This document shows positions 1-18,590 of a stretch of 64,000 bases of DNA, piece by piece. Within the stretch, counting starts at the first letter, position 1, and the number at the start of each line of letters is the position of its first letter. The notes beneath the pieces were generated by a model. That model had not been told where the DNA came from, did no database searches, and saw only the letters and a list, made by a program, of their open reading frames with translations. Made by a program: the position numbers and the translations under genes. The stretch covers positions 192,001 to 256,000 of the forward strand of contig CAWJYV010000004.1 of NCBI GenBank assembly GCA_963847185.1. The letters are read 5' to 3'. Source of the stretch: an uncultured Methanosarcinaceae archaeon. Lineage in GTDB: Archaea > Halobacteriota > Methanosarcinia > Methanosarcinales > Methanosarcinaceae.

Positions 1-150
1 TAATAACAAAAGTTTCATCATGGCCGACAACATATTTTTTACATAACAAAATACGTTTACAAATTATTCCTGTGATTAAAGTAACCTTATGCAAAAAATG
101 TGACATCCATGAAGAATAAGAATACCTGCTTTCTTAGGAGATGTACGGCA

Positions 151-639
151 GTGTCTGATGAAATTAAAAAGCAAATTGAAGACTTGATTTCTGAATCCAA
201 TAATCTGATGGAGTCTTTAAGTAAGTTTTTTTATTCGGTACCCATTCAATACGCTCCATTCCTTGACATTGGGCCCTTTACGATATCTGATCTGCCTAAA
301 ATGTGGGATTACGATCTTGACCCCAATATCAATATCTATGAGGGAGAGCCAGTACCGCTCAATTACAAATGGTTTAAACTGACTAAAGACCAGTTTCTTG
401 AACAGGATGAATTGTTTAGAAGATACATAACATGGGCTTCAAGTGCCAGAAACCTGATTGAAATATTTTCGCCAGAAAAATTAGCTTTTTTTAATGAAAA
501 GTCCGAAATTGTCAGAAAATGGATTGAAATGAGCGAACGATTACCGTCGGATGACAATGTAGAAATGTTTTTGAGATTTAGAAGACACTTCGCAAGCCAG
601 CAACATATTGTTTCCGCTTTATTGGAGAAAATTGAGTAA
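151..639 (+). CDS. Hypothetical protein (cassette cargo)
   Basis: ORF 100..639 in the track. GTG at 151 follows AGGAGA, so it is the likelier start. No family recognised. Confidence 0.6.
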   Translation: MSDEIKKQIEDLISESNNLMESLSKFFYSVPIQYAPFLDIGPFTISDLPKMWDYDLDPNINIYEGEPVPLNYKWFKLTKDQFLEQDELFRRYITWASSARNLIEIFSPEKLAFFNEKSEIVRKWIEMSERLPSDDNVEMFLRFRRHFASQQHIVSALLEKIE

Positions 640-704
640 CAAATATTTTTTAGCCAAAATATAAATGAATTTTTAGTGTCATTTAATATGGAAGAAAATC
701 TTTC

Positions 705-830
705 TCCTCCGTTCAATTCAATTGAAATATATTTTTCCTGCCATCGGCCTGTCCCAATCTAAAGAGAACTAAAGAATCCGTCTGTTTTGCAGATTTATAT
801 GATCATTTGCAGGGGCGATAAATTTTGCTT
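705..830 (+). repeat. Array repeat copy R1
   Basis: TTCAATTGAAATATATTTTTCCTGCCATCGGCCTG..AATCTAAAGAGAACTAAAGAATCCGT..TTTTGCAGATTTA..TTTGCAGG, matching the other copies. Confidence 0.85.
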
Positions 831-933
831 TACCGGATAATTAGCCTGAATCAGAATTTCAGGCACTTTTATTGCTCCATAAACCTTCGCTATAAAGTTT
901 TTTCTCATTTGGAAGGTGCACTGCCATAATTAT

Positions 934-948
934 AGAAAGATTTATATA
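934..948 (+). promoter_or_regulatory. BRE/TATA promoter of CxxC gene copy 1
   Basis: AGAAAGA-TTTATATA about 150 bp upstream of the ATG, identical in all three copies. Confidence 0.65.
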
Positions 949-1094
949 TTTTAATTGCTATGTATGTGTGTTGACAAATAAAGATCCGTATAATCATCTG
1001 TTATTAAAAACCCAGTTTTGTTTTTAATCAAAGAGTTCTATACAATCTTATTTTTAAACTGTAACTAAAAAATCAAAACCAAGGTGAAACAAAT

Positions 1095-1283
1095 ATGGCT
1101 TTTAATGACAGAAACTTCAGAGGAAATTCTAATTTCGGCGCTCCCAGAGAAATGCACAAGACAATATGTTCAGACTGTAAGACTGAGACAGAAGTGCCTT
1201 TCAAGCCCGATCCAGAAAGACCGGTTTACTGCAGAGAGTGTCTTCCTAACCACAGGACGCCCAGAGAAAACCGCAGATACTAA
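1095..1283 (+). CDS. CxxC-x17-CxxC small zinc-finger protein, copy 1
   Basis: CSDC-x17-CREC with the PFKP..RPVYC signature; AAGGTGA RBS. Confidence 0.9.
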   Translation: MAFNDRNFRGNSNFGAPREMHKTICSDCKTETEVPFKPDPERPVYCRECLPNHRTPRENRRY

Positions 1284-1415
1284 GTGTTAAGTGTTATTTC
1301 TGTAATTGAGTTTACATAAACATTTATTTCTTTTCCACTTTTTAACTATACAATAAATACGGAATTATTTTTTAACTTGTGATCTTTTACAGCTTGTGAA
1401 GATGGCTTTCCAAGG

Positions 1416-1521
1416 CTAGTGTCTCAAAAATTTAGTTCTGAGTCCTCATAATTAAGAAAGGGACTACTAATAAGGTATTGTTAAGTATTAATGCCCAGTA
1501 ATTAAATTGTCATGACACTAG
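1416..1521. mobile_element. MITE-like element
   Basis: Imperfect terminal inverted repeats CTAGTGTCtcaaaAATTTAgTTCTG / CAGtAAtTAAATTgtcatGACACTAG; absent at the equivalent position behind copies 2 and 3. Confidence 0.6.
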
Positions 1522-1554
1522 TCAGTTTTACCCTTTATTGATAAGTCGTATTAA

Positions 1555-1860
1555 GGGACTGTTTTAGAATAAAAGTGAAAACCTGTTAATTGAATCTTGT
1601 TTTCATTGGAGCTGTCCAAAACTGGACTGCTAAACAAAAAAGTGAAGCTCTTTGACCTATTCTTATTCAATTCAATTCAATTCAATTCAATTCAATTCAA
1701 TTCAATTATATTTTTTCTGCCATCGGCCTGCTCAAATCTAAAGAGAACTAAAAAATCCGTGATCTTTGGAGATTTAGAAGGAACACTCTGCAGGTTTTTT
1801 TGAATAAGCGATTCTTTTCCTCTGAGAGGAATTTTTCTGATCCAAGCGACGTTTTTAGGT
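1555..1860 (+). repeat. Array repeat copy R2 (long form, with (TTCAA)8 at 1666-1705)
   Basis: 1555-1660 aligns with 13875-13980; the core and tail align with 6735-6906. Confidence 0.85.
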
Positions 1861-1877
1861 TAATTCTGGATTAATAA

Positions 1878-1990
1878 TAGCTATCAGAAACCTCCGTTTT
1901 CAGCATGATTCACAATCCTCGAACTTTTCTCAAGGAGTGTGAGGATTGGGGGAATTTTAAACTGCCGAAAATGAGGATTTCTTAACTGCC
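1878..1990. mobile_element. Palindromic MITE-like element
   Basis: Outer IR AGAAACCTCCGTTTTCAGCA / TGCCGAAAATGAGGATTTCT; inner stem CAATCCTC / GAGGATTG. Confidence 0.45.
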
Positions 1991-2002
1991 GTTGACAATT
2001 GC

Positions 2003-2099
2003 AAAGAGCAAAATATGAAGGATTTCATAAAATGAACACGCATCAGTAATAAGTGCAATCGTGGTAAATGTAAAAAGATTAGTTACAGTGAGTAGCTGA
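2003..2099 (+). pseudogene. C-terminal remnant of an IS5/IS1182-like transposase
   Basis: With one frameshift it reads RAKYEGFHKMNT-SVISAIVVNVKRLV, resembling the R-a-r-Y-r-G...A-i-v-x-N-x-K-R tail of these transposases. Confidence 0.45.
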
Positions 2100-2311
2100 G
2101 AATATCGATAAACTCCTAAACTAGGTATCAATAATGAAAAGTTGAAAGAAAAGGATGAAAGGAATGGTCATTTTAGTGAAAAATCCTCTCAAAATTGAAG
2201 TATATTAATGAAGTTCAAATTTTGGCGCTGAAAATTTACGATGGCTAACCATTAGCTACTTTTACGACTCTATCTTATCTGATTAATCCCTTATCCCATA
2301 AGGCTAAAATG

Positions 2312-2356
2312 CCCCTTCCTCAAAACTCTAAGCTTTGTGAAGAGTTTAGGGAGGGG
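2312..2356 (-). terminator. Stem-loop downstream of adh
   Basis: CCCCTTCCTCAAAACTCT / AGAGTTTAGGGAGGGG inverted repeat 14 bp past the stop. Confidence 0.45.
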
Positions 2357-2369
2357 AAGTTGACTCGCT

Positions 2370-3431
2370 TTATTCATCCAGAAGAACAACAGGTTTGATC
2401 AGATCTCTTGGTTTTTCTTTCATGAGCATGAGAGCCTTTTCCATGTTGTCGAATCCTTCGAATACGTGGGTGGCCATTTTTTCGGGCTTTATTCTTCCGT
2501 AAGTACATAGGGCTGCCATTCTTTCCATTCTCAGACGACCTCCGGTTGTCAGACCACCACGTATGTCTTTTTGAGACATACCCACCCCCCATTCAATACG
2601 TGGAATAGGAAGTATGTCTCCGGTTCCGTAGTAATTGACGTTTGATACCGTGCCTCCGGGCTTTACAATTTTGATTGCATCTGAAATTGTGTTTTCATTC
2701 CCTCCTGCTATGATTACAGAATCCACACCTTTTCCATTCGTCTTTTCAAGAATCTGTTCAACAAGTCCACCTTTTCGGTAATCAACAATTTCAGACGCTC
2801 CGTATTCCATAGCAAGATCAACACTGACTTCCCGACTTCCTACTGCAATGAGCCTACCTGCGCCAAGAATAGATGCACCTGCCACTGCCATCAGACCAAC
2901 AGGACCAATTCCTATGACTGCAACTGTAGAGCCAGTTTTAATATTTGCCATTTCTGCACCCTGTATTCCAGTAGTTGCCATATCTGATAGCATGACAGCC
3001 TGTTCGAGGGGCATTCCTTTTGGAAGTAGAGCTAAATTCATGTCTGCATCATTTACATGGAAATATTCTGCAAAGACTCCACTTTTGAAGTTTGAAAACT
3101 TCCATCCACCAAGCATTCCATTTGAGTGCATAGGTACTCCATCCTGTGCCTCTATGGATCGCCAGTCAGGGGTAATTGCAGGGACAATTACTTTATCGCC
3201 TGGTTTGAAGTTTTTGACCTCTGATCCGATTTCTTCTATAACACCTACAGCTTCGTGTCCTAAAATCAAGTTTTTGCGATCTCCAAGCGCACCTTCCCAG
3301 ACAGTATGAATATCTGATGTACACGGCGCGACCGCAAGAGGCCTCACGATTGCATCATATGGTCCTGCTGAAGGTCTTTCAGCATCAATCCAGCCTACTT
3401 TCCCAATTTCAAGCATTGCAAATCCTTTCAT
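2370..3431 (-). CDS. adh: Zn-dependent NADP(H) secondary (isopropanol) alcohol dehydrogenase
   Basis: MKGFAML.IGKVGW, PCTSDIH, GHEAVG, GIGPVG, GSR NADP signature; closely resembles the T. brockii and C. beijerinckii ADH sequences as I recall them. Confidence 0.92.
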   Translation of the reverse strand: MKGFAMLEIGKVGWIDAERPSAGPYDAIVRPLAVAPCTSDIHTVWEGALGDRKNLILGHEAVGVIEEIGSEVKNFKPGDKVIVPAITPDWRSIEAQDGVPMHSNGMLGGWKFSNFKSGVFAEYFHVNDADMNLALLPKGMPLEQAVMLSDMATTGIQGAEMANIKTGSTVAVIGIGPVGLMAVAGASILGAGRLIAVGSREVSVDLAMEYGASEIVDYRKGGLVEQILEKTNGKGVDSVIIAGGNENTISDAIKIVKPGGTVSNVNYYGTGDILPIPRIEWGVGMSQKDIRGGLTTGGRLRMERMAALCTYGRIKPEKMATHVFEGFDNMEKALMLMKEKPRDLIKPVVLLDE

Positions 3432-3488
3432 ATTATTCCACCAACCTTTTCAAAATAATTATTTTTCAATGTTTTTTATAGTAACCCG

Positions 3489-3528
3489 CATATTAATCTG
3501 CTGTAGTGGTATTTATAATTACTAAGGA
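3489..3528 (-). promoter_or_regulatory. Promoter block shared with the MNT gene (14846-14885)
   Basis: 35 of 40 nt identical; contains TTATAAATA on the minus strand. Confidence 0.6.
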
Positions 3529-3544
3529 TGGAAACTTGAATTTT

Positions 3545-3657
3545 ATTTCAATTCAATTAATTAAAATATATTTTCCCTGCTATCTGCTTGCCCTAATATA
3601 AAGAGAACTCAAAAAACCCGTGATTATTTGTAGCGTTAGAAAGAGCACTTTGCAGAA
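3545..3657 (+). repeat. Array repeat copy R3
   Basis: TTCAATTCAATTAATTAAAATATATTTTCCCTGC..AAAGAGAACTCAAAAAACCCGTGAT..GCACTTTGCAG. Confidence 0.8.
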
Positions 3658-3804
3658 TTGATAAGTTTAACTTGTCTCTTTCATTGGATAGCACCAAGAA
3701 TCCAAAATTTAATCAATCAATTCGTAGAATCTATATAAGATCTCGATAAGATCTCGATTCAGTATAAAAATAAATATTCAAAGGTTCGGACAGGAGTATT
3801 AATT

Positions 3805-4010
3805 ATGCTTATACAATTATCCGGGAATCTCTTGAGATAGCAAAATATGAAATAATAGATGACAAAGAACCTTATTATATGGAGAAGTTCCCGAACTTGA
3901 AGGTGCATGGATTACAGGCAAGAACCTTGAAAGGTGCCAGAAAATATAGAATAAGTTATTGATGAATGGATTGCTATCAGATTGAGAAATGAGCTCTGTC
4001 TGCCTAGATT
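3805..4010 (+). pseudogene. Degraded HicB-family antitoxin
   Basis: Joining frames gives MLIQ-IRESLEIAKYEIIDDKEPYY-GEVPELEGAWITGKNLERCQ..VIDEWIAIRLR; CAGGAG RBS upstream; not in the ORF track. Confidence 0.65.
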
Positions 4011-4120
4011 TTGCAATTTTCTAACTATATAAATACCCTGAAGACCTCATGCCGATCTAAGGAAGTTAATGAACGGAATTTTGTAGGCCAGGTCGTGAGC
4101 TCCTTTCAACAGATTTTGAA

Positions 4121-4830
4121 TCATAACTTTGTAGCTATGATTGAAACCAGATTAAAGTAGTTTCCACCTTCAGCTTCCATCATTCCTATATCTCTACGAG
4201 CAAAGTCGTTGTCACACATAAGCCAATCTTTCCATGATTCCTCTAAACAATTTAACTCTTTACACTCCTGAATAGTTACCAGATCGGAAGTTTTCCATAA
4301 ATTATACCACCAGTCAGCAAGAGTAATAGATTTATATCATCACCCCAGTAAGGCTGTAATTCTGCCGGAACTCCATTCGTAAAATTCTTTTTCAATCCAG
4401 GAACTGCAACTGCAATTTGTCCTCCTTTTTTTACAAGCGGTGCAAGATGATTTGTCAGATAATCTTTTTCAGCCCCGAAAAAATTATAGGCATCTATACA
4501 GATAGCAGCATCAAAAAATTCATTTGCAAAAGGCAAATCGTGGGCTTCTGCGTGTATTGGTATTATTTTATCTTCCAGTCCCATTGACTTAATTCTCTCA
4601 TAGTTATCTGTTGCACTTATCCAGAGATCAGTTGCAAAAACTGTAACATCATATTCTTTTGCCAGGAATATTGAGGTCAGCCCTCTCCCACAGCCAAGAT
4701 CGAGTATTCTCATGCCTTTCTCAAGCTTCAAAGATTCGGAAACTTCCTCAAGAATCTTCATTGCATTTGGTCCCATCATGTTTTCTTTAACAAAATCAAA
4801 ATCATACCTGTTACTTTTTGTAAACATCAT
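4121..4830 (-). pseudogene. Class I SAM-dependent methyltransferase, frameshifted near 4320
   Basis: ILDLGCGRG motif I; reading continues in another frame as DWWYNLWKTSDLV...SIIATKL* to the stop at 4121. Confidence 0.8.
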
Positions 4831-5065
4831 CTTGACCACTTTTAGTTAATCTATCCCATATTATTTCATGGAGTTTGTTACTTATAATTCTTCTATGACT
4901 TCGAGGCAACCTTTGTCACATATCGTTCTTTTATTTGAACTAATGTATTCAGTCAGTATAGCCTTTAACTTAACAACTTCACTTTCATATGCTTGAGCAG
5001 TAGTCTTAATATCGTTCAGAAAGATAACCGTTTTACTCTACAATAAACTGAAAAGTAGTGAAAAG

Positions 5066-5899
5066 ATGAATGAAAAATTACTTGCAAAAATTGGATTGAA
5101 CAAGTATGAGAGTTCAGTTTACCTGACACTTCTAAAACAAGATTCTATGGAAGCAAGCAAATTATCACATGCATCGAAAGTCCCTATAGGAAAGATCTAC
5201 GAGGTTCTCAAAGCCCTCAAAAACTATGAGCTTGTCGAAATCCAACCGTCACGGCCACAGAGATACCGGGCGTTTGATCCTAAAAGCGCATTTAAACTGA
5301 TGTACAAAAGAAAAGAGGAAGAAACACTCAATGAGCTCAGAATGCTCAAGGAAACATTTGATGAAATCGAAAGGAAACTTTGCAACGACAATTCCCCACA
5401 AAATGTTGAAACTGTCTTCTGGCCTGACAGGTTTCGTAATAATGAACTAAACGAAATGGTGGATTCATCTTTTGAGAAAATCGAGCATGAAATATGTGTT
5501 GTAATCCATATTAAGTACAAGCCCGAAAGATCGGAGCTATATGATGCCTCAGTATCCACCTTTAGCAAAGCTTATTTGAGTTTAGTACAGCGTGGCATAA
5601 AAGTTAAAATTTTAGATCCGGGATCACAATTACTGCCATCATTAAAAGAGCTTATTGATTCAATAGAAGATCTGTCATTTAAACGCTATTTTAAGGATCT
5701 GATGGAAGTAAGAATTTTAGAAACCGAACACAATTTTTCAATCATTGATTCTAAGATAACCCTTCTCGATATTGAAGACCAGTTCAATATGAGTAGAAAC
5801 CTCGGTATGACAAGAATATATGATGAATTATATGCAAAGCGATTCAAGACAAAGTTTGATGAGCTCTGGACAAAGGGTGAATTGTTTTCTCTGACCTGA
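5066..5899 (+). CDS. TrmB-family transcriptional regulator
   Basis: GLNKYESSVYLTLL..ASKVPIGKIYEVLKAL..PQRYRA N-terminal wHTH; PLD-like C-terminal effector domain. Confidence 0.88.
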   Translation: MNEKLLAKIGLNKYESSVYLTLLKQDSMEASKLSHASKVPIGKIYEVLKALKNYELVEIQPSRPQRYRAFDPKSAFKLMYKRKEEETLNELRMLKETFDEIERKLCNDNSPQNVETVFWPDRFRNNELNEMVDSSFEKIEHEICVVIHIKYKPERSELYDASVSTFSKAYLSLVQRGIKVKILDPGSQLLPSLKELIDSIEDLSFKRYFKDLMEVRILETEHNFSIIDSKITLLDIEDQFNMSRNLGMTRIYDELYAKRFKTKFDELWTKGELFSLT

Positions 5900-5994
5900 C
5901 TTGCAAAGATATCCGTAAATTTCAATTTTTCTATTAGTTTTTGCCTTCAGCCAAAAACCATATGAAAATACAAACTGTTGAAATTATTGAGTTA

Positions 5995-6080
5995 TGTTTG
6001 TTAAGAAAAGCGAAATTGAAAACCCGTGATTTTTGCAGCTTTGGAGAAAGCGCTTTTCAGGGTCGATAAATTTTGCTTTA
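5995..6080 (+). repeat. Array repeat copy R4 (5'-truncated)
   Basis: GTTTGTTAAGAAAAGCGAAATTGAAAACCCGTGATTTTTGCAG, matching 10998-11035 and 14985-15020. Confidence 0.75.
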
Positions 6081-6342
6081 TCAGTTAATCAACCGGAGTT
6101 AGAATTTCAGGCACTTTTATCGCTCCATAAACCTTCGCTATAAAGTTTTTTCTCATTTGGAAGGTGCACTGCCATAATTATAGAAAGATTTATATATTTT
6201 AATTGCTATGTATGTGTGTTGACAAATAAAGATCAGTATAATCATCTGTTATTAAAAACCAAGTTTTGTTTTTAATCAAAGAGTTCTATACAATCTTATT
6301 TTTAAACCGTAACTAAAAAATCAAAACCAAGGTGAAACAAAT

Positions 6343-6531
6343 ATGGCTTTTAATGACAGAAACTTCAGAGGAAACTCTAACTTCGGCGCTCCCAGAGAAA
6401 TGCACAAGACAATATGTTCAGACTGTAAAACTGAGACAGAAGTGCCTTTCAAACCTGACCCAGAAAGACCGGTCTACTGCAGAGAGTGCCTTCCTAACCA
6501 CAGGACACCCAGAGAAGACCGCAGATATTAA
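6343..6531 (+). CDS. CxxC-x17-CxxC small zinc-finger protein, copy 2
   Basis: One amino-acid difference (N to D) from copy 1; TATA at 6189-6196. Confidence 0.9.
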   Translation: MAFNDRNFRGNSNFGAPREMHKTICSDCKTETEVPFKPDPERPVYCRECLPNHRTPREDRRY

Positions 6532-6629
6532 GTGTTATTTCTGTAATTGAGTTTACATAAACACTTATTTCTTTTCCACTTTTTTTAAATATATCTTAGG
6601 CTCGGAATATACTTTTTTCTTAATCGAGA

Positions 6630-6906
6630 GCTTTTGCAGAATTAGAAGGCACACTTTGCATGAGTCTTTTTTGATTGCAGTGATCTTTTCTTTGGGAGGG
6701 CTATTTTCAGATTAAAGTTAACTCTTCTTCCAAGTTCAATTCAACTAAAATATATTTTTCCTGACATCGGCCTTCTCCAATCTAAAGAGAACTAAAAACC
6801 CGTGATTTTCGCAGCTTTATAAGGGGCACTTTGCAGGGCTTCTTTAGATTAAGCGATTCTTTTCCTCTGAGGGGGATTTTTTGATTCAAAGCGACGTTTT
6901 TCAGGT
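6630..6906 (+). repeat. Array repeat copy R5 (degenerate tail followed by a full unit)
   Basis: Core at about 6735-6840; closely similar to 12810-13075. Confidence 0.85.
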
Positions 6907-7037
6907 AGTTATGGGTAAGGAAAAATCTTCATGAATTGGACCGCTGAATAAGAGGTGAAAATTCCTCCTTATCCCTTCCAGGCAACTCAAAGTCATCTTC
7001 CCAACAGATATCTTCAGCAGGAATCAAGCTATTTCAA

Positions 7038-7828
7038 TCATCTGGTTTCAAGAACCCATTTCCAGAGAGGAACATAACTGATATCATTTTCCTTTTTTTC
7101 GAAATTCTTCGTAAGCAAGATTAACCTGGAAGCTTTCTCCCCAAAATATTCCTTGAATTCCAGAAGAGCATTGATTTCTCCCTGTCTTATGTGATCTGTA
7201 CAAGTGCAGTTTATACCTGTGAGTGCTCCATCTATGCCTTTGATGACAAAATCTACTTCTCTTTTTTCTTTCCAGTAAAAGAATTCTACTTTTCTCCTCT
7301 TCAACTCTACAAAAGCCAGGTTCTCTGCAAGCCTTCCTTCATCAGCAGAAAAGGTGAATGCCGCTGAATTTCGAAGCCCATTATCAATGCAGTAGACCTT
7401 TTTGGGCATTCTGATTGAGATTGAATCTTTGACTGAGTATGAAAAGAAGTTCAACTGGTATATCAGGTAGGCCTGTTCTAGATAAAGCAGGTATTCTTTC
7501 AAGCTGTTGACTGAGAGCCCGATGGCATTCGAGATTTTTGAATAACTCAGGAGAGTGGAGACATTTGATAGGGAATAATTCGCAAGTTCGATCAGTTTTG
7601 CGCTTTCCCGGATATTGCAACCCACCACTATATCCCGAAGGAGGATGCTGTTGAAGTACTCGGTTAGCCGGAGGTGATTGATATCCATATCATCTTCAAG
7701 GACAACTTCGGGAAAACCTCCTTTGAAGAGATACTTGTTAAAATAGTGCAGAATTTCGTTTCTCTGAATATCAGGATCTTTTAATTCAAAACCCTCAAAT
7801 TTGTGTGTGGAGTATTTATATCTTTCAT
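7038..7828 (-). pseudogene. AAA+ ATPase (AAA_14/DUF4143 type) with the N-terminal ATPase part deleted
   Basis: YLFKGGFPEVV, PKKVYCIDNGL, ENL.FVEL, EVDFVI and VPLWKW motifs are present, but there is no Walker A. ATG at 7828 joins out of frame to the mid-gene sequence. Confidence 0.75.
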
Positions 7829-7881
7829 TATAATGATGATTTTAGCTATAAATACCGTCATTACAATGACGGTTATATAAA
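7825..7881 (-). promoter_or_regulatory. TATA box with two palindromic operator-like sites
   Basis: TCATTATAATGA (7825-7836), ACCGTCATTACAATGACGGT (7854-7873), TTTATATAA on the minus strand (7873-7881). Confidence 0.55.
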
Positions 7882-7944
7882 TGAAATTAGATTTGAATCT
7901 TGTAATATCGGGATGTTGAACAAGAAAGGAGATTTCTTATTTTG

Positions 7945-8002
7945 TCCTCCAATTCAGTTAAAATATATTTTTCCTGCCGACGGTCTGCTTACATCTTTTC
8001 CG
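7945..8002 (+). repeat. Array repeat copy R6, cut by IS1
   Basis: AAAATATATTTTTCCTGCCGACGGTCTGCTTACATCTTTTCCG matches 10942-10980 up to the IS end. Confidence 0.85.
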
Positions 8003-8745
8003 GGTATTGTTAACTAAATATAGTTAACTCTTTATTTCTGTATTTCATTAAGAGAAGAACTGAGTACTTTAGCATTTCAAGACTCTTAGTATAACACTTT
8101 GTCTTTCGCCTCAATCTTGCCAGAAAGTGCCTCAATATGCTGTTATATCCTTCAACAGTATACGTTTCTGCTTTGGATTGAGTATGAATAGTTTCTGGAA
8201 CAAACTCTGCATATGCCTTCCAGTGATCAGTCATCACTTTTTCAATCTCTTTTTTCCTTTAATTTTTCCCAGAGTTTTTGTCCAGTTTCTGTTCCTCTAC
8301 TACCAAAAGAGCAGTTGATGAACTTTTTCCCAACTCTATCAACAGCAATCCAGATCCAGCAATATTTTTTTTGTTACCGATGTAAGTGTGCATCTCATCC
8401 ATTTCAACAATAGATATCTCATTTTCGCTTTTTAGGTCCTCTAACTCCTGACCAAATTTCTTTATCCATTTTTGGACAGAAACATGACTTACTCCCAAAA
8501 ATCGCCCTATTGAGCGAAACCCTAATCCTTCAAGATAGAGTTGCAAAGCCTGTCTCTTAACAGAAGCGGAGATAGCAGTTGATTTTAGCTCTACTGAATA
8601 GTTATATCCACAATCACCGCATTTGTAGCGTTGACGGCCATCAACTTTACCATTCTTTTTATGATTGGAGACTCTTACATCTTGGACAGTTCATGCAAGA
8701 AATATAATTTCTCATAATATATATCAGTATTTAGATACCAATGCC
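8003..8745 (-). mobile_element. IS1-family insertion sequence, full length but with extra frameshifts
   Basis: IRs GGTATTGTTAACTAAATA / GGCATTGGTATCTAAATA; InsA zinc ribbon and HTH; A8 -1 slippage site near 8365-8372; InsB (TDHWKAY, VEGYNS.LRH.LARLRRKT); extra 1-nt insertions near 8667 and 8250. Confidence 0.9.
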
Positions 8746-9240
8746 TTTTTTTCCTTTAATTTTTCCCAGAGTTTTTGTCCAGTTTCTGTTCCTCTGCTAC
8801 CAAAAGAGCAGTTGATGAACTTTTTCCCAAATCTATCAACAGCAATCCAGATCCAGCAATATTTTTTTTGTTACCGATGTAAGTGTGCATCTCATCCATT
8901 TCAACAATAGAGATCTCATTTTCGCTTTTTAGTTCCTCTAGCTCCTGACCAAATTTCTTTATCCATTTTTGGACGGAAACATGACTTACTCCCAAAAAAC
9001 GCCCTATTGACCGAAATCCTAATCCTTCAAGATAGAGTTGTAAAGCCTGTCTCTTAACAGATGCGGAACTAGCAGTTGATTTTAGCTCTACTGAATAATT
9101 ATATCCACAATCAGAGCATTTGTAGCGTTGACGGCCATTAACTTTACCATTCTTATTATGATCGAGACTCTTACATCTTGGACAGTTCATCAAGAGATAT
9201 AAGTTCTCATAATATATGTCAGTATTTAGATACCAATGCC
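8746..9240 (-). mobile_element. Second, truncated IS1 copy (intact insA 8756-9190, most of insB missing)
   Basis: Highly similar to 8250-8745; ends in the same IR, TATTTAGATACCAATGCC. Confidence 0.9.
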
Positions 9241-10853
9241 CTTTTTTTTATTATAATCTTGATATTTTCAGTTACCTTAGGTATAAATGCTATCAATTTC
9301 TCCATTTTAAACAAAGTTTCTGCCTCCTCTGATATCTCTTCAACCGGTAGTGGCTATAATGACTCAGTTTGGGAAGAAAACGATATTGGATCCAACTTTG
9401 TAGCACAAGATAAAATAGTAATTGGAGAGGGACGCAACGATGGCATCAAAAGGGTATATTCTGCAGACGGCGTTTCGGGCTCTGGTACTATATATGAATA
9501 TAGTTTTAATAACGGTGAATGGGAAAAGAGGAGTATTATAGAAGATAGCTCAAACGATTCAACAGTTGTTCAAGATGTTAATACGGTTTATGGACTAGAG
9601 ATTGGAGATTTTCGCAATGACACAATAAATAGAATTTATGCTTCTGGTTATAATTTAGCGGAATATAACTTTGATTCCGGCTCATGGCTTGGGTATGTGA
9701 AAGGTCCTGATCAGATTCAGTGGACTAATGATATGGTTTTGGGGGATGTCGCAATGATGGCTACATAAGGATGTATGTAGCTGGATGGGGAGAAATTTAT
9801 GAAGTTTCCTATAATCACGGGAATTGGGATTCAATAAAAATTGATACTGGAGGACAGCGAGTAGAAGAACTGTTCGTTACTGATGGTAGGAACGATGGAG
9901 TTTTCAGACTATATGCTGCAATAAATGAGCATATTTATGAGTATACTTGGTCAGGAAGCGAGTGGGAAACAGTTGATTGCAGTGCGATAGGTAACGAGCC
10001 TTATATTTTGTCCTGCGATATGTATGGAGGCGATGCAAGAAATGATGGTAAAAATAGGATTTATCTGGTTGCTGGAGGCCTTTATGAACTGTCTTATAAT
10101 GCTAAGAACTGGGATAGTATTGTAATCGCAGATTCAAATAAAATTGGCGCAGTTACTATTGGTATTGGAAATGACGGGATAAATCATCTCTATACAGGAA
10201 GCTCAACAGGCATTGGTGAATACACATTTAGTAACGGAGCATGGAAAAAGACAGCAAATTATGATACCAAATATAAAGTCAACGATCTAACAGTTGGACA
10301 AGGCAGAAACGATGAAGTAAATCACATTTATGCAACTAGTGACGACAACCACGTTTATGAATATAGCTATACTGGAGGGAAAATATCGAATGAAGATAAC
10401 GTCGTAAATAATGGAACGAAAACAACACCAAAGGAAAATGTGTATCTGATAACAGCTACATTAATAATAGTATCTATATTAATTTTCATTAGATCAAAGT
10501 TAGAAGATAACCTGCTCAAAAATAGAATATTGTACATTATTGCGGGTATTCTAGTAGTTGTTATCTCGGTTGTTACATTCTTAATGGATATTATATCGAA
10601 TGTTAAACTAGTTTTTATCTTAATTCTTATATTAAATATCATCTTAACAGCAGTCATATCTCATTCAAGAAAACATAAGCAGAAGAAGAAGGATGAAAAA
10701 CAAGGAGAGAATAACGAAAAAGAAGAAAAAGCAATTGAAATCGAAACAAAATCGCAAGAAAATGTTTCCGTGAAAACTGTTACATTGGAATTATTAATGA
10801 ATATTATTGGAAACATTATTGCGGGCTTAATAATTGCTTTGATACTTCACTAA
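9241..10853 (+). pseudogene. Secreted/membrane-anchored beta-propeller-like repeat protein; start lost to IS, frameshift near 9749
   Basis: Signal-like hydrophobic N-terminus, seven G-[DE]-x-R-N-D-G-x-x-[RH]-[ILV]-Y-like repeats, C-terminal TM helices. Confidence 0.7.
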
Positions 10854-10911
10854 ATTCTACTAAAACGGTTATTTCAATAAATTATTCATGTCGCACTTAT
10901 GTAATCTTATT

Positions 10912-11040
10912 TTTCTCCCAAAATTATCGAATTTAATCTATTATATTTTCCCTGCCGGCGGCCTGCTTACATCTTTTCCGAAATCTACCTCGAATACGTT
11001 TGTTAAGAAAAGTGTAAGAAGAGTGAAATTAAAAATCCTT
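10912..11040 (+). repeat. Array repeat copy R7
   Basis: TATATTTTCCCTGCCGGCGGCCTGCTTACATC..AAATCTACCTCGAATACGTTTGTTAAG. Confidence 0.8.
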
Positions 11041-11088
11041 CGATATGTCTATCCAATTTCTTCCTTATACTTTATTAAGACATAGAAA

Positions 11089-12021
11089 TCAAACATCTTT
11101 TTTCCCATGCTCGGAGAGATATTGTTCAACAGCACGTTTTGAACTATGCCACGTTTTTCCGATTTTTACCGCATCTAGGAGCCCCTGCCTGGCTCGCAAG
11201 CTGAGGTATTCCTGAGAATAAGGAGTTTCAATGGCAAGTTCTTTTAGAGGCAGTAGTTCGTCGTTTCCTCCTGAGATGGAGAGGTAGAGAGTTAGGTTTT
11301 CATCCACAGCTTTTGCAATGAAATTAGCAAATGCTCTCAGGTTTCCAGCATCTGCAGCCCTAAGAAATTTATAATATTTTCCCCTGTCCTCTTTTTTGAG
11401 CACGACAGGAGGATAATCCCTTGAGATCAAATACAGGTTTGTGAGAAGCCGGGCTACTCGTCCGTTTCCATCGCTGAAGGGATGAATTTCAACAAATCTG
11501 TGATGCAGGAATGAAGCTATCTCAATGGGATGCGCCTTGCTTTGAGCTATATTTTCAATTAACTCATCCATGAGTTTCACTATCTTCGACCAATCAGGAG
11601 GAGTCTTTACTGCACCTGCTATTCTCACATTTCTTGTGCGGTATCTTCCGGCATCTTCAAGTATGCCGATGGTTACAATTTCGTGGATTTCCTGAATCGT
11701 AACATGGTCTATTGCACATTTTTTCTTTGCCAGCTCTTCCATCCGGTCATAAGCTTTTGCATTATTGTTTGCTTCAAGATGCTCCCTGAGAGATTTCCCC
11801 CCAATGGTCAGACCTTCTTCCAGAACAAGTTTTGTTTCCTGAAGTGTGAGCGTATTGCCCTCTATTGCATTGGAGTGATAGGTATGAACTAACCTCATCT
11901 CTTCATGCAGCCTTGCTAAAGCATCTGCTGGAACTGGCCTAATTGAGTCTAGCTGTTTCATTTTTTCATTTATTCGTGCAAGGAGTTCTTCTCGAATCAG
12001 AGTAGTATCGGTATTGGCCAT
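11089..12021 (-). CDS. Class II Fic-family protein with C-terminal HTH
   Basis: Catalytic HPFSDGNGRVAR; autoinhibitory SNAIEGN; C-terminal LLPLKELA..YLSLRARQGLLDAVKIGKTW excisionase-like HTH. Confidence 0.9.
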   Translation of the reverse strand: MANTDTTLIREELLARINEKMKQLDSIRPVPADALARLHEEMRLVHTYHSNAIEGNTLTLQETKLVLEEGLTIGGKSLREHLEANNNAKAYDRMEELAKKKCAIDHVTIQEIHEIVTIGILEDAGRYRTRNVRIAGAVKTPPDWSKIVKLMDELIENIAQSKAHPIEIASFLHHRFVEIHPFSDGNGRVARLLTNLYLISRDYPPVVLKKEDRGKYYKFLRAADAGNLRAFANFIAKAVDENLTLYLSISGGNDELLPLKELAIETPYSQEYLSLRARQGLLDAVKIGKTWHSSKRAVEQYLSEHGKKDV

Positions 12022-12104
12022 AATTTAATGTATCCGATATGTGTCATGTAATATATATCGGTATCGGCAAGTTTTTGAGTTATCCGATACAACTTTTTCC
12101 CCTA

Positions 12105-12250
12105 TACTCCATTTCAATTAAAATATATTTTTTCCTGCCGGCGGTCTGCTCAAATCTCCCCTGAATACGTTTGTTAATTTTAGAGAAATTGAAAAACACC
12201 GTGATTTTTGCAGATTTAGAAGGAGCACTTTGCAGGACCGATAATTTTTG
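12105..12250 (+). repeat. Array repeat copy R8
   Basis: TTTCAATTAAAATATATTTTTTCCTGCCGGCGGTCTGCTCAAATCT..CCGTGATTTTTGCAGATTTAGAAGGAGCACTTTGCAGG. Confidence 0.88.
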
Positions 12251-12518
12251 TTTTATCTATCATTAACCAAAATTCCAATTTCAGGTACTTTCATCGCTCC
12301 ATTAAACCTTCCCCATAAAGTTTTTTCTCATTTGGAAGGTGCACTGCCATAATTATAGAAAGATTTATATATTTTAATTGCTATGTATGTGTGTTGACAA
12401 ATAAAGATCAGTATAATCATCTGTTATTAAAAACCAAGTTTTGTTTTTAATCAAAGAGTTCTATACAATCTTATTTTTAAACTGTAACTAAAAAAACTAA
12501 AACCAAGGTGAAACAAAT

Positions 12519-12707
12519 ATGGCTTTTAATGACAGAAACTTCAGAGGAAATTCTAATTTCGGTGCTCCCAGAGAAATGCACAAGACAATATGTTCAGACT
12601 GTAAGACTGAGACAGAAGTGCCTTTCAAGCCCGATCCAGAAAGACCGGTTTACTGCAGAGAGTGTCTTCCTAACCACAGGACGCCCAGAGAAAACCGCAG
12701 ATACTAA
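12519..12707 (+). CDS. CxxC-x17-CxxC small zinc-finger protein, copy 3
   Basis: Protein identical to copy 1 (one synonymous change); TATA at 12364-12371. Confidence 0.9.
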   Translation: MAFNDRNFRGNSNFGAPREMHKTICSDCKTETEVPFKPDPERPVYCRECLPNHRTPRENRRY

Positions 12708-12809
12708 GTGTTAAGTGTTATTTCTGTAATTGAGTTTACATAAACATTTATTTCTTTTCCACTTTTTTTAAATATATCTTAGGCTCGGAATATACTTTTT
12801 CTTAATCTA

Positions 12810-13075
12810 GAGCTTTTGCAGAATTAGAAGGCACACTTTGCATGGTCTTTTTTGATTGCAGTGATCTTTTCTTTGGGAGGGCTGTTTTCAGATTAAAGTT
12901 AACTCTTCTTCCAAGTTCAATTCCACTAAAATATATTTTTCCTGCAAGCGGCCTTCGCCAATTTAATGATTGCAAAAAATCCGTAATTTTTGTAGCTTTA
13001 TAAGGGGCACTTTGCAGGTCTTCTTTAGATTAAGCGATCCTTTTTTGAAGGGGAGTTTTTTTCTGATTAAAATAA
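12810..13075 (+). repeat. Array repeat copy R9
   Basis: Closely similar to R5. Confidence 0.85.
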
Positions 13076-13170
13076 AGAATTTTCAACTAGCTCTACGCAT
13101 AAAATTTGTTAGCTAAGTTCAATGAAGATTATTTATAGCATTTTTAAGCAAATAAATAGGGGGTTACTTT

Positions 13171-13830
13171 CTGGAGATACCAAAATTTAAAAGACTACCA
13201 GGACATATTGCTATAATACCGGACGGCAACAGAAGATGGGCTCTATCTAGAGGCTTAGAAAAACATGAGGGATACGACAATGGAATAATTCCAGGCTTGG
13301 AATTATACGATATATGCGTAAAAATTGGAATAGGCGAAGTTACTTTTTTTGGATTTACTCAGGATAACACAAAAAGGCCTCAAGTTCAAAGAAAAGCATT
13401 TGTAGATGCCTGTATAAAATCAGTTAAAGAACTTTCTAAACTTGACGCTGAACTACTTGTAGTAGGGAATACTAATTCGGATTTGTTTCCGAAAGAGCTA
13501 CTTGCATATACAAAGAGAACTAAATTTGGAAAAGGTAAAATAAGGATAAATTTTTTGGTAAACTATGGCTGGTATTGGGATTTAATTCATGCATTTGAGA
13601 ACTCTTCAGATAGTAAAAAAATGGCAGAGAATATCGCATCAGCAGAGATTCCAAGAATAGATTTACTTATTCGCTGGGGAGGAAGACATAGACTCAGTGG
13701 GATGCTTCCAATTCAAACGGTATACTCAGATATATATGTAGTCGATGAAATGTGGCCAGATTTTAAGCCAGAACATCTATATAAAGCATTAGAATTTTAT
13801 CAAGACCAGGATATTACACTGGGTGGATAA
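13171..13830 (+). CDS. cis-prenyltransferase (UppS family)
   Basis: In-frame extension upstream of the track ORF contains HIAIIPDGNRRWA; also DLLIRWGG..RLSG.LP and WPDF. Apparent CTG start after AGGGGG. Confidence 0.85.
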   Translation: MEIPKFKRLPGHIAIIPDGNRRWALSRGLEKHEGYDNGIIPGLELYDICVKIGIGEVTFFGFTQDNTKRPQVQRKAFVDACIKSVKELSKLDAELLVVGNTNSDLFPKELLAYTKRTKFGKGKIRINFLVNYGWYWDLIHAFENSSDSKKMAENIASAEIPRIDLLIRWGGRHRLSGMLPIQTVYSDIYVVDEMWPDFKPEHLYKALEFYQDQDITLGG

Positions 13831-13874
13831 TTGACTTTCTTGCCTTTCACCGATTCTTTAAAATTGATTTTTTT

Positions 13875-14156
13875 TGGGCTATTTTCGGATTAAGTTGAAA
13901 ATCTGTTAATCGAGTCTTGTTTTCATAGGAGCCATCTAAAACTGGACCTCCAAATAGGAAATGAAATCCTTTCAATCACCCTAACTCATCTGAAATATAT
14001 TTTTCCTGCCGGCGATCTGCTTAAATCTACCCCGAACACATTTGTTAATTTTAGAGAAATTGAAAAACGCCGTGATTTTTGCAGATTTATAAGGGGCACT
14101 TTGCAGAGCTTCTTTAGATTAAGCGACTCTTTCCTTTCAGAGGAATTTTTTCTGAT
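13875..14156 (+). repeat. Array repeat copy R10 (long form)
   Basis: All modules present; abuts the HepT stop codon. Confidence 0.88.
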
Positions 14157-14509
14157 TCACATTTGATCCAGTATGCGTTTGATATCCGGTTTTGCTTCTG
14201 GAATACCTTCTTTAACGGATAACCAAACTACCTTCAGATTTACCCCAAAAATAAGCGTGGATCAATTTGTCCCGGATGCCTGCAAGGTCTTTCCAGGGAA
14301 CTGAAGGATGTTTTTCGCGTACTTCAAAAGGGATATTTTTTGCCGCTTCGCCAATGATTTCCAGAGTTCTGATTACTGCGAATTGGGTTTTTCGGTCGGA
14401 TGCAAACTCTTCGAATGTCAAGTTGTTGACAAATTCTTCTGCAATTTCCATTGCATCATAAATATCCTGGACATAGTCTTTTACTTCGCGAATCTCAATC
14501 CCTCTTCAT
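14157..14509 (-). pseudogene. HepT/DUF86 HEPN ribonuclease toxin, two +1 frameshifts
   Basis: LEIIGEAAK and the RDKLIHAY (Rx4H) motif; ATGA overlap with the MNT stop; extra base after ATGAAGAGG and in TATTTTTGGGG. Confidence 0.8.
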
Positions 14510-14811
14510 ACGGCTTCAACTTCATCCAGAATGTGTTTGCCTATATTTGGTTTTAAGGCATCTTTCATAACCAGATCAACCTTAACGCCAAGAGCTTCCG
14601 AAAGGTAGTTTTCAAGGTTAACAAATTTAAAAATAGTAGGAGTCTTACTGAATTCCACAAGCACATCCAGATCGCTTTCCGGTTTCTGTTCTTCCCTAAT
14701 ATAGGACCCAAAAACCCCCAGGTAACTGACGTGGTATCTCTCTCTAAGCTCCGGGAGCATTTCGTGGAGTTTCTGGATGTAGACTTCAACTTTTTTTCGG
14801 TTTTCAGGCAT
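14506..14811 (-). CDS. Minimal nucleotidyltransferase (MNT) antitoxin
   Basis: FGSYIREEQKPESDLDVLV (GSx10DxD) and KVDLV. Confidence 0.9.
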   Translation of the reverse strand: MPENRKKVEVYIQKLHEMLPELRERYHVSYLGVFGSYIREEQKPESDLDVLVEFSKTPTIFKFVNLENYLSEALGVKVDLVMKDALKPNIGKHILDEVEAV

Positions 14812-14911
14812 TTATTCAGGCTCGTTGCTTTCCCTTCTGGTATGTCATAGTAATTTGCTGTTGTAGTATTTATAATTACTAAAGAGGAAAATGGAATCTG
14901 TGTCTTGAATC

Positions 14912-15125
14912 ATATTCAATTGAAACACCTTTTCCTGCCGGCGGTCTGCTTAAATCTACCCCGAATACGTTTGTGAATATAAAGCTAAGAAAAGCGAAAT
15001 TGAAAAATCTGTGATTTTTCAGCTTTTAGGGGCACTTTGGGCTGTATTTTATATAGCGATCTTTTTACTGGAAGGTGTTTTCGAATTAAAATGAAAAACT
15101 GTTAACTGACGATTGTTTTCAGGAG
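14912..15125 (+). repeat. Array repeat copy R11
   Basis: TTTTCCTGCCGGCGGTCTGCTTAAATCTACCCCGAATACGTTTGT..GTGATTTTTCAGC..GGGGCACTTTG..CTGTTAA..TTGTTTTCA. Confidence 0.82.
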
Positions 15126-15215
15126 ATGTTATAAAAATAGATTACTACATGAGAGTTCTTTGTTGGTCATCTTTAAAGGAATTTTGTCTAATAGTCCTAT
15201 TCTCTTAAAATCTTT

Positions 15216-18200: not shown

Positions 18201-18590
18201 TGAGATAAATAATTTGATTTCTGCTTTTATGAATTTGTATGTAGAAAGCTTTCTTGAAATTTGACGTATAAATTCAAGGGCGAAAGCAGCCCACATTACA
18301 TCTTCCTTATCATGTCTCCATGCATTGAATAAAACTGTGTATTCTCCGTTTGCTTCAAGTTCTTTTATAAGTTGTCGTATAAACGATGACTTGCCACTGC
18401 CCCAAGATCCTTCTATGGATAATGTTAACGGTGGTTCCGTATCTGGATTTATAAGGAACTCTTTAATAGCTTCAACATAAGGACTGAAACCTAATAAATC
18501 GTCATAGGATGGTTGATCGCCAGTTGCTGCGTTAGGAATTTCTTCTTCTTCTTTTGCTCCATCGTAATAGTCTCCATATTGATCAACCAA
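15216..18590 (-). pseudogene. KAP-family P-loop NTPase apparently fused to HEAT-like repeats and a conserved C-terminal domain, broken by several frameshifts
   Basis: Walker A GSWGSGKS, FNAW, TM insert, Walker B FIDDLDRC, YLEKFIQLPF and NPRRIKQFIN lie in successive fragments. The 15216..16754 frame stays open about 67 codons upstream with no start codon. Confidence 0.7.

Follow-up and report, generated by a model that had tools for sequence, protein, structure and literature searches.

How can genes be kept as interchangeable cassettes, and their order changed from species to species, at a locus that encodes no integrase? To our knowledge, nearly all described gene-cassette platforms are integrons, whose working requires an integrase and folded attC sites. 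The question is raised by a 64,000-nt stretch of DNA from an uncultured Methanosarcinaceae archaeon (here the window; positions C4:192001-256000 of the source genome G000, which comprises 4.04 Mb in 10 contigs), in whose first 15 kb copies of one non-coding repeat alternate with unrelated genes, a few kilobases from argG. We hold with moderate confidence that the locus is an array of cassettes with a single, fixed chromosomal position, which also gathers defense genes and is reshuffled by orientation-preserving recombination at functional repeats, with homologous recombination as the favored mode.

Repeat finding on window positions 1-16000 yielded a 46-nt family of 10 copies, together with longer families that extend the 46 nt. 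A profile built from the 10 copies and run with nhmmer over the 4.04 Mb of G000 gave 17 matches at E<=0.01. Sixteen of these lie within C4:186129-207065, every one on the + strand; the seventeenth (C6:12434-12550, - strand) is a weak, degenerate partial copy in an unrelated context. Eleven of the 16 array copies are in the window, where they span 708-15065, and five more lie to its left (at 12129, 14471, 15113, 16191 and 17722 of L001, which is C4:174001-192000), taking the array back to C4:186129. The same profile search found no copy in window 15066-64000. When a 28-nt pattern of the core was allowed up to 3 mismatches, it matched the window three times and had no match in 100 shuffles. The initial annotation of this DNA, made from the window alone, had described about 11 copies in one orientation, their absence from the other 49 kb and a probable continuation left of position 1, all of which the profile search bears out. 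Most of its copy positions hold as well; those at 1555, 6630, 12810 and 13875 mark a less conserved stretch that precedes the core.

The anatomy of the repeat was read from a cargo-free tandem array (L007) of 5.5 units with a period of 263 nt. One of these units supplied a unit profile of 299 positions, in which 264-299 repeat 1-36, and this profile gave 115 matches across five arrays, all on one strand. Unit positions ~126-172 are the core, AATTCAGTTGAAATATATTTTTCCTGCCGGCGGTCTGCTTAAATCT, ~46 nt in which an AT-rich, TATA-box-like palindrome is followed by a GC-rich box. A conserved stretch holding two TTTGCAG motifs continues to ~253, and positions ~264-299, AAGCGATTC, contain a short hairpin and a T-run with TTTCTGAT at the end. 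Positions 37-125 are a less conserved spacer, which is replaced by cargo wherever cargo is present; the resulting architecture is a ~170-nt repeat plus a variable spacer of 35 nt to several kb, consisting either of 35-90 gene-free nucleotides or of one or two genes. The empty unit of genome G004, at ~205 nt, has a shorter spacer than that of L007. Among the 115 matches, copy starts concentrate at unit positions 120-129 (24 copies) and copy ends at 210-219 (11), 250-259 (16) and 280-299 (58), and the part from ~126 to 198 is always retained when cargo truncates a copy. The copies in the window are the following, where CxxC denotes a small zinc-finger gene described below.

708-842, + strand: repeat copy 1 (nhmmer E 2.9e-26), unit positions 106-252; a CxxC cassette is next
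1687-1817, + strand: repeat copy 2 (nhmmer E 4e-31), unit positions 19-293 and then 14-109; the near-complete unit covers 1554-1908 and has a (TTCAA)n run on its left edge
3548-3682, + strand: repeat copy 3 (nhmmer E 6.4e-22)
6008-6087, + strand: repeat copy 4 (E 1.5e-7), profile positions 70-148, the 3' part only; a CxxC cassette is next
6732-6862, + strand: repeat copy 5 (nhmmer E 3.9e-33)
7945-8096, + strand: repeat copy 6 (E 6.4e-23), unit positions 125-198 only, shortened by an IS1-family insertion
10926-11053, + strand: repeat copy 7 (nhmmer E 2.4e-15), stopping at unit position 215
12105-12263, + strand: repeat copy 8 (nhmmer E 2.9e-35); a CxxC cassette is next
12913-13043, + strand: repeat copy 9 (nhmmer E 4e-29), with a partial copy immediately ahead (12814-12883)
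13977-14132, + strand: repeat copy 10 (nhmmer E 1.4e-36); the complete unit is 13868-14147 (unit positions 13-292, E 1.2e-63)
14907-15065, + strand: repeat copy 11 (nhmmer E 4.1e-26), the final copy toward argG

The (TTCAA)n microsatellite of copy 2 (window 1664-1700) sits at the exact left edge of the core, as does another in genome G009 near C1:1496000; it looks like an expansion of TTCAATTCAA, which is present there in most copies.

Scanning other Methanosarcina genomes, as the initial annotation had suggested, places this array in a wider context. A covariance model that used sequence only detected the element in 51 of 59 genomes of the genus (35 of 39 when just those of high quality are counted). 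Among 151 sampled genomes of the family it matched 30 of 34 from the genus, all 6 from the sister genus g13 and, weakly, 1 of 2 from g2, and a scan of 108 genomes from 13 other genera with the same model found none with the repeat. In a set of five complete genomes there is one main cluster on one strand, with 16 matches in G012, 16 in G010, 17 in G009 (one of them a stray) and 33 in G004; G001 has two clusters and three matches beyond them. The G009 stray (L025:2742-3887, equal to G009:C1:1572742-1573887) adjoins a Fic gene in the usual relative orientation and also a 397-amino-acid (aa) open reading frame (ORF) with 97% identity to another from the main array's far end, which suggests that a piece of the array has moved. 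An exact core pattern, searched in one genome per species across 185,579 species, matched 30 stretches: 25 are labeled Methanosarcina, Methanosarcinaceae, Methanosarcinales or Methanobacteriota, one is unlabeled, and four are contigs of metagenome-assembled genomes (MAGs) that bear bacterial labels. These four (L033, L036, L039 and L045, labeled Lentisphaerales, Cloacimonadota or 'uncultured bacterium'; three of 1.5-3 kb and one of 50.9 kb) are probably mis-binned archaeal contigs.

The repeats run antiparallel to argG, and the array stands 3-10 kb away from the 3' end of that gene, in 25 genomes of the genus. G008 is an exception, with array and argG ~186 kb apart, and G014 and G028 are too fragmented to place one relative to the other. 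The same layout occurs in g13 (G084, G112 and G119), which shares only the ~46-nt core of the repeat, the remainder being different. Because both the core and the link to argG are found in g13, both predate the split of the two genera. The array is thus ancient, and fixed beside argG in Methanosarcina and its sister genus.

Scatter in both orientations, of the kind expected of an ordinary miniature transposable element with inverted repeats (a MITE), did not occur: 16 of the 17 matches in G000 share one locus and one strand. That a MITE-like element has simply piled up at one place is very improbable. The ends of the 170-nt repeat, compared by eye, do show a loose inverted match of 6-7 nt (AATTCAG ... 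CTGATT), and TTCAA stands at both edges, but a single G000 match lies outside the array, strays number 0-2 in five complete genomes, all copies have one orientation, and no transposase is consistently associated with the repeat, those found in arrays (IS1, IS66, TnpB and MULE) being sporadic.

To compare cassettes between species, we oriented 13 array regions from 12 genomes and clustered their ORFs by blastp. All 216 unit matches are co-oriented. Twenty-five cassette families recur in at least three genomes, and in none of their 154 occurrences does a family lie on its minority strand; 14 families share the strand of the repeat (+) and 11 lie opposite to it (-). Order is a different matter: for families of which each genome in a pair has just one copy, relative order is discordant in 75 of 211 comparisons, where random order would give about half. 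Presence and absence of cassettes varies widely among the 12 genomes. The methyltransferase-TrmB, HicB-HicA and TumE pairs travel as units, and duplicates within an array are common (CxxC with up to 5 copies, Fic, TumE, FMN reductase and a family designated 'c8'). Most cassettes belong to a genus-wide pool, with 77-94% nucleotide identity as compared with 83-89% for argG and carB; the alcohol dehydrogenase (ADH; 93-94%) and DUF4143 (94%) cassettes are more alike between species than argG and carB are, and the other cassettes are not, so that recent horizontal exchange of cassettes is no more than a possibility.

Rearrangement is also visible between near-identical strains. Public sequencing runs contained at most 0.27 of the sampled words of window 5900-15200. 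Contigs of four runs were compared with window 1-20000; they gave no cover at 9339-10672 and over most of 15342-20000, gaps to which we attach no meaning. Record 27 of run X4 (1533 nt, depth 50, ~98% identical) runs through 6445-6766, 10958-12128 and then 14930 onward, with 9 differing letters in 321 and 17 in 1170. At this place the X4 strain has the order CxxC, Fic, end of array, without the ATPase, the insertion sequence, the two ORFs at 9178-10853 and the last three cassettes. Its joints, 6766>10958 and 12128>14930, fall inside the core, at unit positions ~156 and 145-149, respectively. Because the G000 copies at these joints share only ~8-9 identical letters in a row, the joints are not an assembly artifact of a shared 31-mer. 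Five other joints between repeat copies count as weaker, either because their shorter sides are 24-56 letters (3552>713, 14973>6815 and 15010>6802) or because these are unlisted (13966>12113 and 14892>715). Together, all strain joints occupy unit positions ~125-225. Pairwise blastn of orthologous cassettes gave no single crossover point, the picture being blurred by homology between repeats. Cargo order and content at the argG locus therefore differ both between species and between near-identical strains, with breakpoints in the repeats, as the initial annotation had anticipated, and the fixed content and order that would have spoken against its proposal was not what we saw. Of the gene capture and shuffling that it proposed, shuffling stands, whereas capture of foreign genes is not demonstrated, most cassettes being drawn from the genus-wide pool at identities like those of argG and carB.

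Recombination has left its mark inside cassettes as well. The three CxxC cassettes of the window (copies A, B and C) are 92-100% identical over ~450 nt and stand 5.2 and 6.2 kb apart, and they are mosaics: the closest pair is A-B at 812-1109, A-C at 1160-1309 and B-C at 1310-1603. Homologous recombination or gene conversion thus acts inside the array, for which the CxxC cassettes are much better substrates than the repeats.

These observations are consistent with a simple mechanism. Recombination between co-oriented repeats, and between paralogous cassettes, would cause cassettes to be lost, duplicated and re-ordered. The driver would be the general homologous recombination of the host, probably aided by several genome copies per cell, and neither an integrase nor an attC-like fold would be needed. 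Shuffling with orientation always preserved is the outcome of recombination between direct repeats, by way of deletion, of unequal exchange between genome copies, or of excision with re-insertion. The repeats themselves would persist by selection for a function of their own, most likely, judging from their motifs, as starts and stops for transcription by which each cassette is insulated, with the AAATATATTT box as the promoter element of the proposed start signal on either strand. In keeping with such a role, the core palindrome with its purine-rich runs on both strands and the hairpin and T-run ~140 nt downstream look like an archaeal promoter and terminator. A second box, TTTAGTAATTATAAATAC (- strand), lies at window 3489-3534 and 14846-14891, directly upstream of the ADH and MntA genes, and precedes the same two cassettes in G004, G009 and G012; it has the look of a portable promoter that these cassettes share. 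Contigs of the RNA-library run X18 fall on cassettes at 112-588, 2535-2856, 11611-12015, 13371-13724 and 14123-14818 and also carry repeat sequence, but their starts, ends and strand are not readable and DNA is possibly present, and they are no evidence of expression.

Selection on the repeat can be gauged from its conservation. Over unit positions 130-250 of 58 copies, identity is 0.78 for the 336 pairs drawn from one genome and 0.77 for the 1317 pairs drawn from two; the concerted evolution among copies that we had expected is absent. The control was the orthologous spacer between argG and carB, which contains a promoter: it is 0.47-0.72 identical between G000 and 10 other genomes, and over 55 pairs its mean is 0.63 of aligned positions and 0.46 of all columns. 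Since non-orthologous repeats are better conserved than this orthologous, promoter-bearing spacer, each copy appears to be held by purifying selection. In the core, repeats that border one and the same cassette in two genomes resemble each other no more than random pairs do (mean z ~0), and the core is therefore unlinked from both neighboring cassettes. In their cassette-adjacent part these repeats are slightly more alike, with z of +0.4 to +0.7 (8 pairs), a hint only, |z| being <1 in segments with at least 6 pairs.

A conserved unit with signals at both ends might also be a gene. On this account, which we regard as unlikely, the units are a family of small non-coding RNA genes, each with its own promoter and terminator, that began as a tandem array; cassette traffic would be a by-product of insertion and recombination in dispensable repeated DNA. 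Cargo-free tandem units, such as the 5.5 of 263 nt in L007 and those of ~205 nt in G004, fit this account, as does the even conservation from the TATA-like box to the hairpin and T-run, and an X18 contig that carries the repeat with a joint at 14994>12205 gives it a weak hint. Folding speaks otherwise: there is no conserved secondary structure or covariation on either strand, RNAalifold returning 0 pairs for 13 copies and 0 for 48 full copies, and a search of window 1-20000 against Rfam gave 0 matches at E<=1. In addition, g13 shares only the promoter-like core and not the putative transcribed part, and many copies end after unit position ~200 and yet persist.

Several more specific identities were considered for the repeat and rejected. 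A structured RNA or an attC-like hairpin is excluded by the missing consensus pairs and Rfam match and by ordinary fold scores, DNA folds of seven single strands giving z from -1.47 to +0.83 and no attC-like hairpin. A small-protein gene in each unit is rejected because ORFs that open on the minus strand past the TATA-like box vary from 3 to 57 aa and differ in frame (in the 23 rows listed). An origin recognition box (ORB) was dropped because TTCAGTTGAAAT, at the left edge of the core, agrees at 9 of 12 positions, which is chance level, is not clustered elsewhere, and differs from the true ORB-like repeats beside cdc6-1, TTCCA[C/G]TGGA. That cdc6-1 region, with three ORB-like repeats and a perfect 18-nt tandem repeat in 7 copies (L030:5111-6063 and 5761-5922), is probably a replication origin.

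Several findings weigh against shuffling by general homologous recombination at transcriptional signals. Frequent homologous exchange or gene conversion should homogenize the copies, and they are not homogenized. Outside the near-invariant core, an identity of ~80% makes the repeats unfavorable for homologous recombination. An unlinked core beside a slightly linked cassette-side part fits crossovers focused on the core, and the three cleanest strain joints all fall within a 30-nt span of it (unit ~127-156), as a site-specific enzyme would likewise predict. The promoter and terminator roles are a matter of sequence likeness only: TATA boxes gathered ahead of 33 of the 64 tRNA genes of G000 give the box TTTATATA, with which the core, compared and counted by eye, agrees at 5 of 8 positions. 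Finally, the gene to the right of a repeat in G000 lies on the + strand in only about half of cases.

The same findings bear on an integron analogue, in which the 46-nt core is the site of a recombinase encoded elsewhere, for example the host Xer-type tyrosine recombinase, and cassettes leave as circles to be re-inserted at other cores. We think this rather unlikely, though it accounts well for a core that is conserved across two genera and unlinked from its neighboring cassettes, for the lack of concerted evolution among copies, for clean joints at unit ~127-156, and for an order that is shuffled while orientation is strictly kept. A dif site has two 11-nt inverted arms with a 6-nt spacer between them, according to the text of PMC8371274. 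Around the CGGCGG of the core, a dif-like 11-6-11 dyad is complementary at a mean of 4.9 of 11 positions (best window, 80 cores), compared with <=3.45 in shuffled sequence; the dyad is above chance but weak for a dif-type site. Tyrosine recombinases are encoded elsewhere in every genome examined, but none is tied to the array: no recombinase gene is linked to it in 11 of 12 genomes. In G000, PF00589 matches lie on C1 and, on C4, only below threshold at ~48 kb and 148 kb, at least 37 kb from the array; in G004, G009, G010 and G012 no PF00589 tyrosine recombinase lies within 150 kb of the array; and a search of G000 for a serine recombinase found none. No intI is linked to an array end, the one neighboring integrase being a 388-aa protein encoded 2.6 kb upstream of the second array locus of G001, beside a MULE transposase fragment. 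Its homologues lie far from the arrays in other complete genomes and are numerous in genomes that lack the repeat. Cargo, moreover, joins the unit at several positions (~198-217, 252 and 292 on the left side, 105-130 on the right), strain joints spread over ~125-225, and the mosaics lie inside cassettes, away from the core.

We favor homologous recombination because mosaics are seen, because cargo joins the unit at several positions and because no enzyme is linked to the array; a recombinase encoded elsewhere stays alive because the copies are not homogenized, identity is low outside the core and the cleanest joints lie within it. The initial annotation had left the driver open between these two, and had judged the locus to be without attC sites or an integrase; the latter judgment agrees with the lack of an attC-like fold and of a neighboring integrase in G000. 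It is possible, though we would not count it probable, that the core is the recombination site of a cassette system that arose in the Methanosarcina lineage independently of integrons, with a recombinase from elsewhere on the chromosome excising cassettes as circles and placing them, in one constant orientation, at any other core; the core would then double as a promoter through which each newly inserted cassette is expressed, allowing exchange of defense and accessory genes across the genus.

The cargo of the array within the window is as follows.

1095-1283, + strand: CxxC-x17-CxxC small zinc-finger gene, copy A, 62 aa (PF23477 E 3.5e-17; TIGR04272 E 1.3e-18)
2370-3431, - strand: zinc-type alcohol dehydrogenase (ADH) cassette (ADH_zinc_N, ADH_N)
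3819-4023, + strand: broken remnant of a HicB-like (UPF0150) antitoxin, with a frame shift and a stop in a tblastn comparison with the intact 83-aa gene L019:6156-6407
4276-4839, - strand, and 5066-5899, + strand: methyltransferase and TrmB-family regulator, a two-gene cassette (Pfam)
6343-6531, + strand: CxxC-x17-CxxC gene, copy B, 98% identical to copy A
7038-7688, - strand: truncated C-terminal part of an AAA ATPase (DUF4143; PF13635; PADLOC PDC-S01 E 8e-46, profile 199-408 of 412)
8010-9193, - strand: IS1-family transposase fragments (NF033558 E 6.4e-37)
9178-10853, + strand: two adjoining ORFs of 196 and 360 aa in different frames (ORF calls)
11089-12021, - strand: Fic-domain protein cassette (PF02661; PADLOC SoFic / PDC-S04)
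12519-12707, + strand: CxxC-x17-CxxC gene, copy C, its protein 100% identical to copy A
13297-13830, + strand: prenyltransferase cassette, undecaprenyl-diphosphate synthase family (PF01255 E 2.8e-32, profile 29-216)
14212-14451, - strand: short HepT-like toxin ORF (HepT E 1.8e-4, below cut-off)
14506-14811, - strand: MntA antitoxin (NF047752 E 3.2e-12; PADLOC PDC-S09)

Profile and tblastn searches thus support most of the labels first given to these genes (ADH, HicB remnant, methyltransferase and TrmB, AAA ATPase in its DUF4143 part, Fic, prenyltransferase, MntA and CxxC), weakly in the case of HepT. The label 'propeller' for the ORFs at 9178-10853 falls away, as no Pfam family passed the cut-off there; NCBIfam gave no match either. 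Several cassettes have fuller or parallel forms in other genomes. The intact HicB-like gene in L019 is a PF21748 member and adjoins a HicA gene, and a complete 431-aa form of the DUF4143 ATPase is present in G010. The ADH cassette is on the same strand in 8 of 12 genomes and the Fic cassette in 8 genomes, and the methyltransferase-TrmB pair stays together in 7. The IS1-family gene contains a 497-bp tandem duplication (8250-8549 and 8747-9046, 97% identical). PADLOC places Fic, the ATPase and MntA in candidate defense families. Overall, most of the cargo consists of toxin-antitoxin pairs, Fic, candidate defense ATPases, small zinc-finger genes and single enzymes. Left of the window the array holds two more CxxC genes, a methyltransferase, a truncated paralogue of eIF-1A and a small winged-helix gene; the cassette made up of a CxxC variant gene followed by the eIF-1A paralogue (L001:16575-17327) is conserved in four genomes, and in G000 its eIF-1A ORF encodes the C-terminal 60 aa only.

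CxxC genes also occur away from the array. Six CxxC-x17-CxxC genes lie outside it in G000 (C10:658080-658253, C10:675565-677436 and C8:1077982-1078146), four of them within 2 kb on C10 and without the repeat. In M. mazei, eight similar CxxC-x17-CxxC small proteins have been detected by mass spectrometry and bind zinc, with no known function according to the text of PMC12704099, from which the words 'repeat', 'copies' and 'paralog' are absent.

A repeat-free gap separates the last repeat from the conserved flank; in the window, gap and flank read as follows.

15216-21076, - strand: a 512-aa protein, a KAP-family NTPase in two ORFs and a 758-aa HEAT-repeat protein, without repeats (Pfam)
21390-22574, - strand: argG (100% self-match at G000:C4:213393-214574)
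22941-26168, - strand: carB (Pfam)
26168-27307, - strand: carA (Pfam)

The argG ORF belongs to the same family as the G009 gene L019:16026-17213, which has both arginosuccinate synthase domains, and 11 other genomes show synteny of the argG-carB-carA flank; the flank beyond the far end is not conserved. The array has a G+C proportion of 0.32-0.385, as against 0.43-0.48 for argG-carB. PADLOC gave QatA-like and LmuA-like matches, both weak, in 15216-21076, where the KAP-family P-loop NTPase is split into 17348-18070 (240 aa) and 18114-18590 (158 aa) and is probably a pseudogene. The gap contains different defense systems in different genomes: a strong Gabija pair in G001 (L024:14101-17995; GajA E 9e-246, GajB E 3e-193) and a 1073-aa NACHT NTPase in G009 and G004 (L019:10378-13599). 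Inside the G004 array there are three partial argG 3' ends (C1 ~1483890-1484240, 1492670-1493090 and 1495660-1496010; L021/L022), 76-90% identical to the G000 argG query, two of them lying in a duplicated block that also has a pair of small ORFs and one repeat; the partial copies may record either an integration or a segmental duplication at the end of argG.

Such fragments are what one would expect if successive integrative elements had accreted in tandem at the 3' end of argG, each leaving its cargo and a repeat as a copy of its attachment site. The NACHT and Gabija systems between array and argG and the lack of a conserved flank at the far end point the same way. We nevertheless consider this history improbable. 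The repeat neither is part of argG nor overlaps it, empty tandem units have no element body, and integrase remnants were not found in the arrays. Nor does the repeat behave as a viral or plasmid attachment site, a candidate that we rejected: the core pattern was not found in viral contigs, and the full unit gave no blastn match in plasmids or phages. Accretion alone, finally, does not explain the same cassettes in different order across species.

How does the array compare with known systems? The superintegron of V. cholerae has ~125-nt VCR repeats, and the present array likewise occupies one fixed locus and has co-oriented ~130-nt repeats between cassettes of one or two genes. Like sedentary chromosomal integrons in general (PMC1382264, PMC9668308), it holds many toxin-antitoxin and uncharacterized genes, and its cassettes differ in kind and arrangement from strain to strain, bounded by the repeats, while the flanks stay. 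It differs from them in having no intI, no attI and no attC-type palindrome or fold, in a repeat that is conserved in primary sequence, and in its empty tandem units. Nor are its cassettes promoterless and co-oriented in the manner of an integron, 11 of the 25 families lying on the opposite strand and promoter-like boxes of its own standing before ADH and MntA. 'Integron-like' is therefore a term for how the array is laid out and behaves, and does not make it a member of the integron family. Clusters of attC sites lacking integron-integrases (CALINs), including those of archaeal MAGs, resemble it as archaeal cassette clusters without a neighboring integrase but are defined by attC sites, of which there are none here; the string 'Methanosarcin' is absent from the main text of the archaeal survey that describes them (PMC9668308).

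Other comparisons share single features. The pdif modules of Acinetobacter plasmids carry one or a few genes, often toxin-antitoxin systems, between short conserved boundary sites and are not known to encode a recombinase of their own. A pdif site is 28 bp long with a clear 11-6-11 dyad, sites alternate in orientation, and host Xer enzymes are thought to be used. Here, by contrast, the sites are at least 46 nt, all direct and with a weak dyad, in an array that is chromosomal and conserved in the genus. Defense islands and hotspots are likewise variable, low-G+C stretches beside a conserved housekeeping gene, and the array with its gap is such a region, rich in candidate defense genes (SoFic-like, PDC-S01, PDC-S09, Gabija, NACHT and KAP NTPase) beside the conserved argG flank; ordinary hotspots, however, are without a conserved co-oriented repeat and do not keep orientation fixed while order shuffles. 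Neisseria minimal mobile elements, whose homology lies in flanking core genes, are gene blocks moved by general recombination in conserved flanks without a dedicated recombinase, whereas here a dedicated, selected non-coding repeat stands between all cassettes. A literature search, which did not extend to the supplementary lists of M. mazei transcription starts and small RNAs or to tables of archaeal integrons, found no description of the array or the repeat. What we regard as new is the repeat-delimited, integrase-free architecture, conserved within a genus, of an otherwise known kind of locus, a cassette array or hotspot.

The array is a layout comparable to that of an integron, in cultivated model methanogens, with an order that differs in every species and without integron parts, and its repeat core has been kept near-constant by selection across two genera. 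Methanosarcina species are among the genetically tractable archaea, and the question of what drives the array is testable for that reason. For the biology of these archaea, the array is a defined hotspot in which to find defense systems, and it gives a genomic context to the abundant CxxC-x17-CxxC zinc proteins that the text of PMC12704099 reports from M. mazei. If general recombination drives it, a conserved intergenic module alone would be enough to make a modular, shuffling store of defense and accessory genes; if a dedicated enzyme does, the Archaea would have invented the integron principle on their own.

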